IMG/VR virus record: IMGVR_UViG_3300045391_006990
Coordinates: 1-64,000 of that record
Origin: a virus
Strand: one strand, 5' to 3'
Length of the DNA: 64,000 nt
Every line of letters begins with the position of its first letter. Position 1 is the first letter of the stretch. Shown here in pieces: positions 3,496 through 56,329 of this stretch. A program made the translations under genes and the position numbers. The notes beneath the pieces were generated by a model. That model made no database searches, was not told the origin of the DNA, and saw nothing but the letters and a program-made list of their open reading frames with translations.

Positions 3496-5556
3496 ATGGG
3501 TTGGAACATAAAAATGCCCGACGCCGAGTACATCACTCTCGAAAGCGAGAAGCTTGATGGCTTGGTGCGCGAGATCACAGACCAGAAAGCTGTCGCCATC
3601 GATTCCGAGACCGACGGTCTGATCCTGCACAAGTGCCGCCCCTACTACTGGTCACTGTGCTGGAAGACACACCGAGGCAACGAACGGCGCATCACGCTGC
3701 CGGCGGATACGCTGGGTGCGTTCAAATACGCCTTCGCTGACTACGAGAAGAAGTGGGTCTTCGCCAACGCCAAGTTCGACATGCACATGTTCGCGAACCT
3801 GGCCATCGACATCAAGGGGCTGCTCGTTGACATCCAGGTGATGCATGCATTGCTCTTCGAGGAGCAATCGCACGGCCTCAAGGATATTGCGGCATCGCTA
3901 CTGGGCTGGAAGTGGACCGACTTCACGGACACGTTCGGCTCGATGCGCGCCGGCATCTGTGTGTGCGGCGGCAGCAAGGCCTCGCACTTCAACCAAGCTG
4001 GTATCTGCAAGAAGACTGGTTGTGCCAACTTCCAACAGGTGGGCCCGCTGGACCTACTCCGTCGCGCCGAAGCGACGAACATGAACCTGCTCATCGACTA
4101 CGCGGCGAACGACGCCTACGGCACCTGGAAAATATTCGAGAGGCTACACGAGGACCTGGCAAAGGAAGAGACCTGGAGCCTGTACGACGACCGGTGGCCC
4201 TTCATCCGCAACATGCAGGATTACTTCTACAAGACCGAGATGCCGTTCACGCGCGTGCTCTACACGTGTGAGCGCAACGGGCTGCGCGTCAACAAGAAGT
4301 ACCTGGAGGAGATCTCCCCCGGCATCTTGAAGGACATGGCGCGGCTGCGGTCCGACATCAACACCATCACCGGCAAGATGATGAAGACGAACGGACCGAT
4401 GCTGGTCGAGTACTTCATCGACGAGTGCGGCCTCAAGCCGCTCAAGATGACCAGCGGTGGCAAGAGTGGCATCAAGAAGCCGTCCGTCGACGAGAAGTTC
4501 CTGGAGCACGTCGCCGATACCTACCCGAACAAGCCGTACGGAGAGGTCGCCAAGCTGCTCAGCGAGCACAACAAGATCGAGAAGCAGTACGGTACGTACA
4601 TCGAAAAGATGCCTGGCCGCCTGGACGCCAGGGACCGTGTGCACCCTCGGCTCAACCAGGACGTCGCTCGTACCGGTCGCCTGAGCTCGAGCGACCCGAA
4701 CCTGCAGAACGTCACGGGCGGCGAGAAGGACCTCTACAAGCTGCGCAACAGCTTCATCGCCCAGCAGGGCTACAAGCTCATCTGCGCGGACTACTCCCAG
4801 CTCGAGATGCGCCTCCTGGCTGCGGCTTCACAAGAGCCGGCCATGATGGACATCTTCCACAAGAATTGGGACATCCACATGGGCAACGTCTCCATCGTCT
4901 ACGGCATTCCGTACGAGGACATGGTCCAGGCGAAGAAGATCGACAAGGCGGTCGAGAAGGGAGAGCTGCCTCCGGAGGCCCGGACGGACTACGTAAAGCG
5001 CTGCTTGGCGCTGCGAAACAGCATCAAGCAAATCGGCTTCGGGCTGAACTACGGCATGAAAGAGAAGGCGATGGCAGCGCGCATCGGCTGCACCGTAGAG
5101 GAAGCCGTGCAGACCATCGAAAAGTACATGGACACGTACCCAACCGTGCGGAAGTTCTTCCAGGGTGCGGCGGAAGATGCCAGGCGCACGGGCTACGCCT
5201 TCACGCTGCTGGGCCGCCGCCGCTACCTGCCCGACATCACGAACCGCGACGACTACACACGCTTCCGCGCTGAGCGCCAGGCTTCGAACATGCCCATCCA
5301 AGGCACGGCTGCCGAGGTCTGCAAGATGGCGATGATCAACATCTACGAAGACGTCGAGCTGCGCGACAAGTACGGCTACATGATGTGCCTGCAGGTGCAC
5401 GACGAAATCGTCGGTGAATGCCCTGAGGAGAACGTAGCCGTCGTACTGCCACGCATCCGTGAGTGGATGGAACACCCCTTCCCCTCGGACATCGGCGTGC
5501 CGCTGACCGCCGAAATCGGTGCCGGCGACGCTTGGGGTACTGCAAAGAAAGGCTGA
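3496..5556 (+). CDS. polA: Family A DNA polymerase with 3'-5' exonuclease domain
   Basis: ExoI 'IDSETDG', ExoII 'NAKFD', ExoIII 'YAANDA'; 'TGRLSSSDPNLQN'; motif A 'ADYSQLEMR'; motif B 'KQIGFGLNYG'; motif C 'QVHDEI'. Confidence 0.97.
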   Translation: MGWNIKMPDAEYITLESEKLDGLVREITDQKAVAIDSETDGLILHKCRPYYWSLCWKTHRGNERRITLPADTLGAFKYAFADYEKKWVFANAKFDMHMFANLAIDIKGLLVDIQVMHALLFEEQSHGLKDIAASLLGWKWTDFTDTFGSMRAGICVCGGSKASHFNQAGICKKTGCANFQQVGPLDLLRRAEATNMNLLIDYAANDAYGTWKIFERLHEDLAKEETWSLYDDRWPFIRNMQDYFYKTEMPFTRVLYTCERNGLRVNKKYLEEISPGILKDMARLRSDINTITGKMMKTNGPMLVEYFIDECGLKPLKMTSGGKSGIKKPSVDEKFLEHVADTYPNKPYGEVAKLLSEHNKIEKQYGTYIEKMPGRLDARDRVHPRLNQDVARTGRLSSSDPNLQNVTGGEKDLYKLRNSFIAQQGYKLICADYSQLEMRLLAAASQEPAMMDIFHKNWDIHMGNVSIVYGIPYEDMVQAKKIDKAVEKGELPPEARTDYVKRCLALRNSIKQIGFGLNYGMKEKAMAARIGCTVEEAVQTIEKYMDTYPTVRKFFQGAAEDARRTGYAFTLLGRRRYLPDITNRDDYTRFRAERQASNMPIQGTAAEVCKMAMINIYEDVELRDKYGYMMCLQVHDEIVGECPEENVAVVLPRIREWMEHPFPSDIGVPLTAEIGAGDAWGTAKKG

Positions 5557-51330: not shown

Positions 51331-51343
51331 TCTTATGCCCGAT
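51331..51343 (-). promoter_or_regulatory. Promoter-like motif variant ATCGGGCATAAGA
   Basis: One mismatch to the TCGGGGATAAGA motif; heads the leftward operon. Confidence 0.55.
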
Positions 51344-51377: not shown

Positions 51378-51390
51378 TTCGGGGATAAGA
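51378..51390 (+). promoter_or_regulatory. Promoter-like motif TTCGGGGATAAGA
   Basis: Intergenic, heads a rightward operon; recurs at 53769, 55944, 62749. Confidence 0.7.
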
Positions 51391-53276: not shown

Positions 53277-53441
53277 ATGCACCACAAACGAAAGCGACCT
53301 AAGAATCGGCGAGCGGGCTGCCTGTACTGCAAGGCCCACAAAGGCAACGGCATCAAAGGCGCGTTCCGCTCGCAGACCTACCAAGAGCAGCGTGCGCTGG
53401 TGGCCGACAAAGAGTTCGGCTTAAGCAGCCGCCCGCGCTGA
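53277..53441 (+). CDS. Small basic CxxC protein (54 aa)
   Basis: MHHKRKRPKNRRAGCLYCKAHKGNG...; AAGGAG RBS. Confidence 0.55.
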   Translation: MHHKRKRPKNRRAGCLYCKAHKGNGIKGAFRSQTYQEQRALVADKEFGLSSRPR

Positions 53442-53756
53442 CTGAAAGGCAAGAGGGAGCTCGCGCAGCAATGCGTTGGCTCCCGTGCCTACGATAGCCA
53501 CTGCTGTCACCGCGTTAGCCAGGTCCGGCTCCTGGAAGCGCTCGACGACGCAGCGCCTATCCTCCGCCTTGTCCGCCAACGCCAGTAGCGCCGCCTCGTC
53601 CGGCACGTGCTTCACCACGACGTTGTTCGATTTCCTGTGCCAAATCGAAGATAGGTCGGGGCCTTCGATCACCCATTGCACGGCGGCGTGGACGGCTTGC
53701 GCCATTTGCAAGCCAGGGTCGAGATCTGCGCGCACGACGATGAACAGCTTCAGCAT
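53421..53756 (-). CDS. Peptidyl-tRNA hydrolase type 2 (Pth2)-like
   Basis: 'KLFIVVRADL.PG.QMAQAVHA', 'VVVKHVPDEAALL.L', 'FQEPDL...TAVAI', 'LRELPL'. Confidence 0.85.
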   Translation of the reverse strand: MLKLFIVVRADLDPGLQMAQAVHAAVQWVIEGPDLSSIWHRKSNNVVVKHVPDEAALLALADKAEDRRCVVERFQEPDLANAVTAVAIVGTGANALLRELPLAFQSARAAA

Positions 53757-53801: not shown

Positions 53802-54158
53802 ATGACCATCAAATCGATATCCGTTGAGCAAGCCAAGCCTTTGTCCAAATCGCAGCTAGAGTGCGTAGGGCGCTTCAACCTGAGATTGCTGGCTGATGAA
53901 CTCGGAATGCTTGCCAACAAGGAGGCCTCAAGATCGTTCCTCTGCTGTTCGAACGCTGAGCAGGTGGATTTGGTGTACGCAAAGATGCACGACTTGGACC
54001 TAACGTCTCCCTTCGACAGGAGCACGACTATCGACATCCGCATCAAATCCGCCAAAGACGCCCTTGCGTCTTCGCTCATCGCGCTACGACATGCCCACGT
54101 CCGTGAGCTAACTGAAGAGGTGCGGAGGCGGGTGGAGGAAGAACTATGCGGCGCCTGA
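53802..54158 (+). CDS. 'GRFNLR'-domain paralogue
   Basis: 'LECVGRFNLRLLADELGML..EASRSFL..SNAEQ' aligns with the N-terminus of 10472..11143. Confidence 0.7.
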   Translation: MTIKSISVEQAKPLSKSQLECVGRFNLRLLADELGMLANKEASRSFLCCSNAEQVDLVYAKMHDLDLTSPFDRSTTIDIRIKSAKDALASSLIALRHAHVRELTEEVRRRVEEELCGA

Positions 54159-55284: not shown

Positions 55285-55319
55285 TACGAAGAAGCGGCCC
55301 TCGCGCTTTTTCGTAGCTC
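55285..55319. terminator. Terminator hairpin, possibly bidirectional
   Basis: TACGAAGAAGCG-gccctcg-CGCTTTTTCGTA between convergent units. Confidence 0.7.
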
Positions 55320-55323
55320 TCTG

Positions 55324-55398
55324 CGCACCCCGCTGGATTCGAACCAGCGACCTCCGAGATCTTCAGTCCCGATGCTCTGCCAACTGAGCTAGGGGTGC
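55324..55398 (-). tRNA. tRNA-Phe(GAA), atypical (6-bp anticodon stem, G discriminator, no encoded CCA)
   Basis: GCACCCC TA GCTC AGTTGGCA GAGC A TCGGGA CTGAAGA TCTCGG AGGTC GCTGG TTCGAAT CCAGC GGGGTGC G. Confidence 0.85.
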
Positions 55399-55442
55399 AT
55401 GTGACGGCGGCGGCAAGGACAAGTCCGAGCACGGCCCGCCGT

Positions 55443-55510
55443 CGGTGGGGTGCGGTGGAATCGAACCACCTCGATCCGGGCTTGCGGCCCGCGCGCTGCC
55501 ATTCACCCCA
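55443..55510 (-). ncRNA. D-armless tRNA-like element (possible Cys-GCA pseudo-tRNA)
   Basis: TGGGGTG AATGGCAGCGCG CGGGC CGCAA GCCCG GATCGA GGTGG TTCGATT CCACC G CACCCCA CCG: acceptor stem, anticodon-like hairpin and canonical T-arm, no D-stem. Confidence 0.6.
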
Positions 55511-55515
55511 GAAAT

Positions 55516-55550
55516 ACAAAAACCCCGCTAGGCAAATTGCCCGCAGGGTT
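55516..55550 (-). terminator. Terminator between the promoter and the tRNA cassette (attenuator-like)
   Basis: AACCCTGCGGGCAA-t-TTGCCTAGCGGGGTT followed by TTTGT. Confidence 0.7.
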
Positions 55551-55628
55551 CGAAAGACACTGGCCACGCCCGAAGGCTGTCGGTCAAAGCTTCATTGCCC
55601 AGCCATCATATCCAACCCCGTGGCGCCG

Positions 55629-55937
55629 TCAAGAGCCTCCCTGCTGGTCCAGCGGGCGGATGACCAGGACGGCCGCCTCCAGCGCCTGGCGCGCGGCTTC
55701 CTTGGCCGCCTCCTCGGTCTCCTTCAGGCCAGCGCCGAGCGGCGCCGTACCGTTCCACGCGCCCCATTGGTAGGCGGGGCCGTCGACGGCCTTCTCGACC
55801 TTGGCCAGGAGCATGGTGCCTTTCACGCGCCCGACCCAGCATGGAGTCTCGGTCCACTCAAGCCTGCGGGGGAATTCGATGAGCTTGCCGGTCATCCCCA
55901 AGAGCCTACCGCCGGCTTCGCGCGCCCACAAGTTCAT
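55629..55937 (-). CDS. Hypothetical protein
   Basis: Open frame divergent from the 55973 operon; start uncertain. Confidence 0.4.
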   Translation of the reverse strand: MNLWAREAGGRLLGMTGKLIEFPRRLEWTETPCWVGRVKGTMLLAKVEKAVDGPAYQWGAWNGTAPLGAGLKETEEAAKEAARQALEAAVLVIRPLDQQGGS

Positions 55938-55972: not shown

Positions 55973-56329
55973 ATGGCCGAAGCATCTGTTGAAGTGGATG
56001 AAGCTGCCCTACGCGCGGCCATTCGCGTATGGATTTACACGCCGATCATCCGTCTGCACACCGTCGCTGGAGAACGACAAGACCTCTATCTGAAGCTCGT
56101 CGCACATGCGGCGCAGCTTCCGTACGAAAAGGTCGTGGAGCTCTGGCATGCGCGCAACCGCGGCATCGTAGACGCTCGCCGCCAATTGAAGCGCATGATC
56201 TTCGCCAAGCTGATGAACGACCCGCCGTCCATCCTTCGGGTTCACGATGAAGTCGTGGTTCATGAAGCCTCGCCTGTAGAATCAGAGGATGTTGCCGAAG
56301 AACAAGGTCATGAAGATCGTCCCCGGTGA
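55973..56329 (+). CDS. Hypothetical protein
   Basis: GGAGG RBS. Confidence 0.55.
   Translation: MAEASVEVDEAALRAAIRVWIYTPIIRLHTVAGERQDLYLKLVAHAAQLPYEKVVELWHARNRGIVDARRQLKRMIFAKLMNDPPSILRVHDEVVVHEASPVESEDVAEEQGHEDRPR

Follow-up and report, generated by a model that had tools for sequence, protein, structure and literature searches.

A conserved intrinsic terminator between a sigma70-type promoter and the tRNA genes of related phages

Background

Terminators that stand between a promoter and the genes it serves are known from several systems. The logic of the phage lambda late genes is that of a strong promoter and then a strong terminator ahead of the cargo: the sigma70 promoter pR' gives a short non-coding transcript, the 6S RNA, which ends at tR', and the late genes are reached by read-through only. 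In the greA/GraL leader a constitutive intrinsic terminator stops most transcripts, giving short RNAs, and the remainder read through to the gene (PMC2836576). The trpL, hisL and pheL attenuators carry a short leader ORF and then an intrinsic terminator before the regulated genes. In rrn operons, boxA/Nus leaders precede the stable RNAs; the rrn antitermination complexes are known mainly for blocking Rho. The small RNAs DapZ and MicL start from promoters in the 3'-terminal part of a coding gene, whose terminator they share. The bar minigenes of lambda are two-codon ORFs that are toxic to Pth-defective hosts.

Here we describe a leader ahead of two tRNA-type genes in an IMG/VR phage record of 111 kb and 58% estimated completeness; the leader lies within its first 64 kb, and this stretch of 64,000 nucleotides is referred to as the window. 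By analogy, the nearest precedents of this leader are lambda pR'-tR' and the greA/GraL leader (PMC2836576). With the former it shares a strong sigma70-type promoter, a short terminated transcript and a cargo reached by read-through only; however, the cargo is two tRNAs instead of late genes, the leader is ~85 nt long as opposed to 194 nt, and we identified no Q-family (PF06530) gene, no sigma-dependent pause element and no Q-binding site. Like greA/GraL, it has a leader terminator that would yield short RNAs together with read-through, but greA/GraL is bacterial and has a protein gene as cargo, whereas the phage terminator precedes tRNAs and also serves an upstream gene. The leader differs from the trpL, hisL and pheL attenuators in having no antiterminator alternative, no regulatory codons and no Shine-Dalgarno sequence, and in the distance between the stop codon of its mini-ORF and the terminator. 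In common with rrn leaders it heads a stable-RNA operon, has a promoter of rrn P1-like format and contains a hairpin adjoining a CUUUGA-containing block; unlike them, it has only a gapped, imperfect boxA match, the block is paired in the hairpin, and the obstacle to be passed is an intrinsic terminator. Finally, it resembles the bar minigenes in having a phage ORF of two to four sense codons with a Pth2-type gene nearby, although this ORF has no Shine-Dalgarno sequence and variable codons, and the Pth2 gene is a separate unit that also occurs in a relative (L008) without the leader.

The tRNA genes of phages are mostly viewed as cargo that is co-transcribed passively. To our knowledge, a regulated checkpoint on viral tRNA supply has not been described for tRNA genes, and a limited literature search returned no paper on a leader of this kind before phage tRNA genes.

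Results and discussion

A small stable-RNA unit downstream of ORF88

The record encodes a DNA polymerase, a UvsX-like recombinase, a large terminase and tail genes, while the majority of its genes have no family. The tRNA transcription unit forms a small minus-strand island. Upstream, beyond the gene we term ORF88, plus-strand genes diverge from position 55973; on the other side, 3' of tRNA-Phe, lie four convergent plus-strand genes with good ribosome-binding sites. The two sets of genes that converge here are separated by a hairpin at 55285-55315, predicted on both strands (plus strand, -17.8 kcal/mol; minus strand, -18.5 kcal/mol), which is probably a bidirectional terminator.

ORF88 (55629-55895, minus strand) encodes a conserved protein of 88 residues of unassigned function. 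We found homologues in 14 clusters at 69-83% identity, with a family length of 87-88 residues, no Pfam or PHROG family, and no match in an alignment search of genome contigs. The predicted fold is beta5-alpha (pLDDT 77). Its identification as a recognisable RNA-binding regulator was not borne out, the dsRBD-like and AP2-like matches being at background (Foldseek E ≥0.29, VIA Z ≤6.7). Upstream of the gene is a sigma70-type promoter, TTGTGG-17-TAGGCT (55903-55931, minus strand), whose hexamers are conserved and whose spacer is variable. The hexamers are kept in the window and in six relatives (L003-L006, L008 and L009), with the consensus TTGTGG-17-TAnnnT, and in all of them the ATG or GTG start codon follows the -10 by 6-7 nt (7 nt in the window). 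This layout apparently implies leaderless translation in the host.

The layout is conserved in related phages

Ten related loci were recovered by means of ORF88, two of which (L003 and L007) are the same. Five of them (L003, L004, L005, L006 and L009), all metagenomic phage loci, have the complete layout, and L003 is located in a complete phage of 195,580 bp. In each, the ORF88 homologue is followed by TTGACG, a 16-bp spacer, TATGAT or TAGAAT, 9 nt, an ATG, a hairpin, a terminator, 12-18 nt and then two tRNAs. In four more distant loci (L008 and L010-L012) ORF88 is present and the tRNA module and the leader are both absent. As a side observation, one of these four, L010, carries at 4240-4340, behind an ORF88 homologue of 51% identity, a tRNA 3' end and a spacer-like hairpin with a T-run, which looks like a decayed remnant of the tRNA module.

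Our comparison of leaders thus comprises six sequences, the window and five loci, representing about three lineages. Pairwise identity across the six loci is 100% in the -35, 82% in the -10 and 90% in the 5' arm of the terminator, and 81% in its U-tract; it is 68% in the promoter spacer, 54% in the 3' arm of the leader hairpin, 46% at the end of ORF88 and 40% in the terminator loop. Given these conserved segments against a drifting spacer and loop, together with the covariation described below, we regard the promoter, the hairpin and the terminator as selected features, and the conservation of the layout in five related loci with covariation takes them beyond chance.

A covariance model built from the six leaders finds exactly one copy in the present record and one in the complete relative, and none in 59 other viral loci or eight bacterial loci retrieved by partial patterns. 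The pattern of the hairpin between the tRNAs drew 60 viral loci, unrelated to ours, and none had the leader. The terminator pattern drew only eight generic terminators from genome contigs, which score ≤35 bits with the leader model compared with 81-105 bits for true members. When viral contigs were scanned for exact DNA matches to the T-arm of the tRNA-like gene and to the terminator, nothing or only the one known relative came up.

Promoter, hairpin and terminator

The leader promoter, TTGACG-16-TATGAT (55605-55632, minus strand), is of sigma70 type and emerged from a promoter scan and from its conservation across the six loci. A sequence-only reading of the window had pointed to TATGAT, a mini-ORF, a UUCG hairpin and a terminator, and on re-reading the sequence we find all four on the minus strand where that reading had placed them. 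It did not contain the -35, TTGACG at 55632-55627, which is separated by a 16-bp spacer from TATGAT at 55610-55605 and overlaps the stop codon of ORF88. On both strands of the 111-kb record only two sites agree with the consensus at 10 or more of 12 positions, the leader promoter being one of these and the other falling within a long ORF. Between the -10 and the ATG lies a GC-rich stretch, GGCTGGGCA (55596-55604, minus strand), which is 9 nt long in all six loci and within which the start site probably falls. A 16-bp spacer, an 8-nt GC-rich discriminator and then an A make up a format resembling that of stable-RNA promoters such as rrnB P1.

Two hairpins were recovered by RNAalifold from the six leaders. 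The first, P1 (55557-55591, minus strand), is irregular and has the apex GCC-UUCG-GGC at 55577-55568. The second is the intrinsic terminator T1 (55511-55548, minus strand), an 11-bp GC-rich stem with one bulge (55548-55523) followed by UUUUUGUAUUUC, its U-tract being 55522-55511. Taken alone, T1 has a folding energy of -20.6 kcal/mol (z = -4.2), and it is among about four or five canonical strong terminators in the 111-kb record. The two hairpins are separate modules joined by a linker of 8-9 nt. In the consensus structure 95% of cells pair, compared with ≤54% when the partners are slid, and four pairs are changed on both sides, three in P1 and one, from G-C to A-U, in T1. The comparison across phages that had been proposed as a check thus yields compensatory changes in both hairpins.

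Folding of alternative leader structures had been proposed as well. For each of the six leaders we computed five folds: of the whole leader, of the leader cut short before the 3' arm of T1, with this arm blocked, with the mini-ORF and 12 nt masked in imitation of a leader covered by a ribosome, and as a partition function. In all six leaders the pairing probability of T1 is ~1.0, and it persists under the mask. In the truncated folds of the six leaders the 5' arm of T1 is essentially free until the 3' arm is present, and neither truncated, constrained nor masked folds of these leaders give a conserved alternative helix that engages it. Because there is no competing fold, we regard T1 as a fixed stop and not as a refolding switch. 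The leader has no Rfam match at E ≤10 for the window or at E ≤5 for three relatives. A T-box or riboswitch was rejected: the leader, which Rfam does not match, is too short, its P1 and T1 do not overlap, and no specifier-like triplet tracks the anticodons.

The tRNA genes behind the terminator

Behind T1 follow a D-armless tRNA-like RNA of 65 nt (55446-55510, minus strand), which scores 23 bits to tRNA-Sec, below threshold, and tRNA-Phe with anticodon GAA (55323-55398, minus strand), found by ARAGORN and Rfam (55 bits). The term tRNA cassette, used in the sequence-only reading, is therefore an overstatement for one real tRNA and its tRNA-like companion. The latter is the first tRNA of the family, tRNA-1, with an 11-nt deletion of the D-arm relative to the canonical tRNA-1 of the relatives. 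In tRNA-2, the tRNA-Phe, of L004 compensatory changes in the T-stem keep the cloverleaf, and we conclude from this retention of structure that tRNA-2 is expressed and used. Apart from the genes behind T1 the record has no genes of tRNA type, and the same is true of the complete 195-kb relative.

The distance from T1 to the first tRNA is 12-18 nt. A second promoter between the two was rejected, since neither a hexamer pair nor the phage motif TCGGGGATAAGA discussed below occurs in these 12-18 nt. As the interval leaves no room for a promoter of their own, synthesis of the tRNAs depends on read-through of T1, and because tRNA-2 is used, its synthesis must pass T1. That a terminator separates the sole plausible promoter from promoter-less tRNAs, so that these are made only on read-through, had been suggested for the window; our analysis bears this out and extends the arrangement to the five related loci.

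Some further features of these genes may be recorded here. The relatives' tRNA-1 is a full cloverleaf (L003:4380-4455, L006, L009:3137-3212, L004:4394-4470), and its anticodon loop has diverged rapidly (AAC, GAA, an 8-nt loop with GCAA, AAG), while tRNA-2 is stable. By our reading of the alignment, position 33 of tRNA-1 is C, not U, in L003, L006 and the window copy. Between the two tRNAs of the window is a spacer hairpin (55403-55443, minus strand; -23.1 kcal/mol), which is kept in all relatives, where it is branched, closed by 8 bp and directly 3' of the ACC of tRNA-1; it is possibly a processing site.

A mini-ORF at the start of the leader

The mini-ORF ATG AAG CTT TGA (55584-55595, minus strand) overlaps the 5' arm of P1. 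Its ATG and in-frame TGA are kept in six of six leaders across a 6-nt indel; the chance that a single 6-nt indel event preserves the frame is roughly one in three, and both indels found in the leaders are multiples of three. In all six the ATG follows the -10 by 9 nt, compared with 6-7 nt for ORF88, and from this distance we consider a 5' UTR of 1-3 nt likelier than a truly leaderless start. There is no Shine-Dalgarno sequence upstream of the mini-ORF. Its stop codon lies 35 nt upstream of the T1 stem, which places T1 beyond the footprint of a ribosome. The encoded peptides are MKL, MKI, MKI, MKL, MTHRA and MTSRA, and across the six loci their codons show no consistent match with the downstream anticodons (GAA; AAC and GAA; GAA; a GCA-type loop and GAA; AAG).

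A second frame, starting at a UUG that overlaps the UGA stop, is open through P1 and the 5' arm of T1 in all six leaders. We rejected a longer leader peptide from this UUG in view of the absence of a ribosome-binding site and of a conserved stop, and of a mixed pattern of substitutions. The frame runs into tRNA-1 in three of the six loci, and its codons do not track the downstream anticodons across loci. Since a clearly non-coding frame is equally open, running across the tRNAs for over 100 codons, we attach no weight to open frames at this locus.

A fixed stop and its rivals

We hypothesize that a stable-RNA transcription unit, conserved and present once per genome in a family of large soil phages, begins at this locus. 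In the reading that we prefer, if tentatively, T1 acts as a fixed, promoter-proximal stop: the ORF88 mRNA would end there, a leader RNA of ~85 nt would result, and the tRNAs would be left to read-through alone. A host sigma70-type promoter would drive a leader of 85-95 nt, made up of P1 and T1, and T1 would halt the ORF88 mRNA as well as the majority of RNAs started at the leader promoter, the product of termination being a hairpin-plus-terminator RNA. Transcripts from the ORF88 promoter run into T1, which hence doubles as the terminator of ORF88. The tRNAs would come only from polymerases that pass T1, and RNase P would then trim the leader from them. We infer the start site and the efficiency of termination from the sequence; we likewise infer that the fraction of read-through would be set at the polymerase, by a passive leak or an antitermination factor, and not by ribosomes. 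Since the only tRNAs are kept behind a strong, conserved terminator fed by a near-consensus promoter, their output appears to be deliberately throttled or gated. If the terminator is merely leaky, the locus would be a clean natural case of a leader RNA and a cargo on one promoter.

Three observations speak against a fixed stop. To place a near-consensus promoter directly before a strong terminator seems a waste, except where the gate is regulated or the leader RNA serves a function of its own. The conserved ATG and in-frame TGA, with indels in threes, is a pattern that, on the alignment, a fixed stop does not explain. The conservation of the 5' arm of T1 exceeds the needs of pairing, and this hints at sequence-specific recognition.

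A second reading, which we consider possible though rather unlikely, is that T1 is a truly conditional gate. The tRNAs would then be made only when a signal allows polymerase past T1, which would constitute a regulated checkpoint for the supply of viral tRNAs. Candidates for the signal would be a Nus/boxA-like complex, a phage antiterminator that recognises P1 or the invariant arm of T1, or a ribosome occupying the near-leaderless mini-ORF. Were the gate regulated, the locus would reveal how a virus sets the timing or the dose of its tRNAs, with a bearing on the current idea that phage tRNAs replace host tRNAs lost to cleavage.

One form of such regulation, timed or conditional, is processive antitermination, in which a factor or an RNA signal of the leader makes the polymerase resistant to the terminator. 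The candidates here would be a boxA-like loading site for Nus factors, P1 as a nut- or put-like hairpin, or a phage protein, with a logic like that of lambda pR'-tR' and its 6S RNA. The strong promoter and strong terminator before the cargo match that logic, the spacer and discriminator are those of a stable-RNA promoter, the 5' arm of T1 is 90% conserved in sequence, and the conserved 5' block AUGAAGCUUUGAC resembles the rrn boxA consensus of B. subtilis, AUGAUCUUUGAAA, which adjoins a small 5' hairpin (PMC13753749). With an rrn-like promoter format and a boxA-like block, Nus-type antitermination is a fair rival, yet we judge it unlikely. By eye, the boxA match is 7-9 of 12 and depends on a gap of 1 nt, and its agreement with the E. 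coli consensus is poor over the 5' half; 8 nt separate the AUGA block from the UUGAC block in L004 and L005; and the boxA-like block is base-paired in P1, with covariation. Moreover, RNAs started at the ORF88 promoter would contain this signal as well, and neither a Q antiterminator (PF06530) nor a T7-like RNA polymerase was found in the 58%-complete record or in the complete relative.

We consider it improbable that the main product is a trans-acting small RNA of ~85 nt, of the DapZ or MicL kind, with the tRNAs merely using the leak. In its favour, the promoter is strong, its -35 and the stop codon of ORF88 overlap, ORF88 is followed by no terminator before T1, and a 5' tail, a hairpin and a U-tailed terminator are the usual build of a small RNA. 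On the other hand, the leader has no long conserved unpaired seed, the 5' block being partly paired and different in L004 and L005, and no Rfam relative, and it never occurs apart from the tRNAs: where ORF88 homologues stand without tRNAs (L008 and L010-L012), the leader is missing too.

The sequence-only reading had favoured a ribosome-coupled attenuator. On such a view, translation of the near-leaderless mini-ORF would decide whether T1 forms; a possible extension is re-initiation at the UUG, in a frame through P1 into T1, and in either case the amount of tRNA made would depend on how translation is faring. For all that the frame of the mini-ORF is conserved, that it overlaps the 5' arm of P1, that the apparently leaderless ORF88 makes such initiation plausible in the host and that the UUG frame is open into T1 in all six leaders, we find this very doubtful in the face of a terminator with no antiterminator alternative, masked or unmasked, a probable 5' UTR of 1-3 nt with no Shine-Dalgarno sequence, a stop codon out of a ribosome's reach, codons that do not track the anticodons and a longer frame that has no conserved stop and is no more open than a non-coding one.

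Neighbouring genes and a recurrent motif

The same reading had joined the tRNAs with Pth2 in a translation-rescue system. The gene for Pth2 (PF01981, 32 bits; 53421-53755, minus strand) is a conserved neighbour in five relatives and is syntenic with ORF88 in L003, L004, L008 and L009, and its presence in L008 is not accompanied by the tRNA module or the leader. In the window the four convergent plus-strand genes and the probable bidirectional terminator stand between it and the tRNAs, and the divergent intergenic region upstream of it is its own and contains TCGGGGATAAGA. From its position behind the plus-strand block and from this upstream region we conclude that Pth2 is a neighbour in a separate transcription unit, and we do not retain the operon link. 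Its start is most likely the ATG at 53755 (111 residues) and not the TTG at 53831.

A protein scan with a neighbouring gene of 191 residues gave no relatives. A sigma70-family protein (Sigma70_r2, 38 bits), with no counterpart found in the present 58%-complete record, is encoded in the complete 195-kb relative (G001:C1:9320-9532, plus strand, locus L028), between an orf202 homologue and Pth2, 2.5 kb away.

The 12-mer TCGGGGATAAGA has exact copies in the window at 51379, 53770, 55945 and 62750 on the plus strand and at 51331 on the minus strand, and none in the leader. It stands 16-18 nt before both of the plus-strand operon starts that we checked (53770 and 55945), in divergent intergenic regions, and it is also conserved upstream of the ORF88 homologues of the relatives. 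Its placement makes TCGGGGATAAGA a probable phage-specific promoter or operator.
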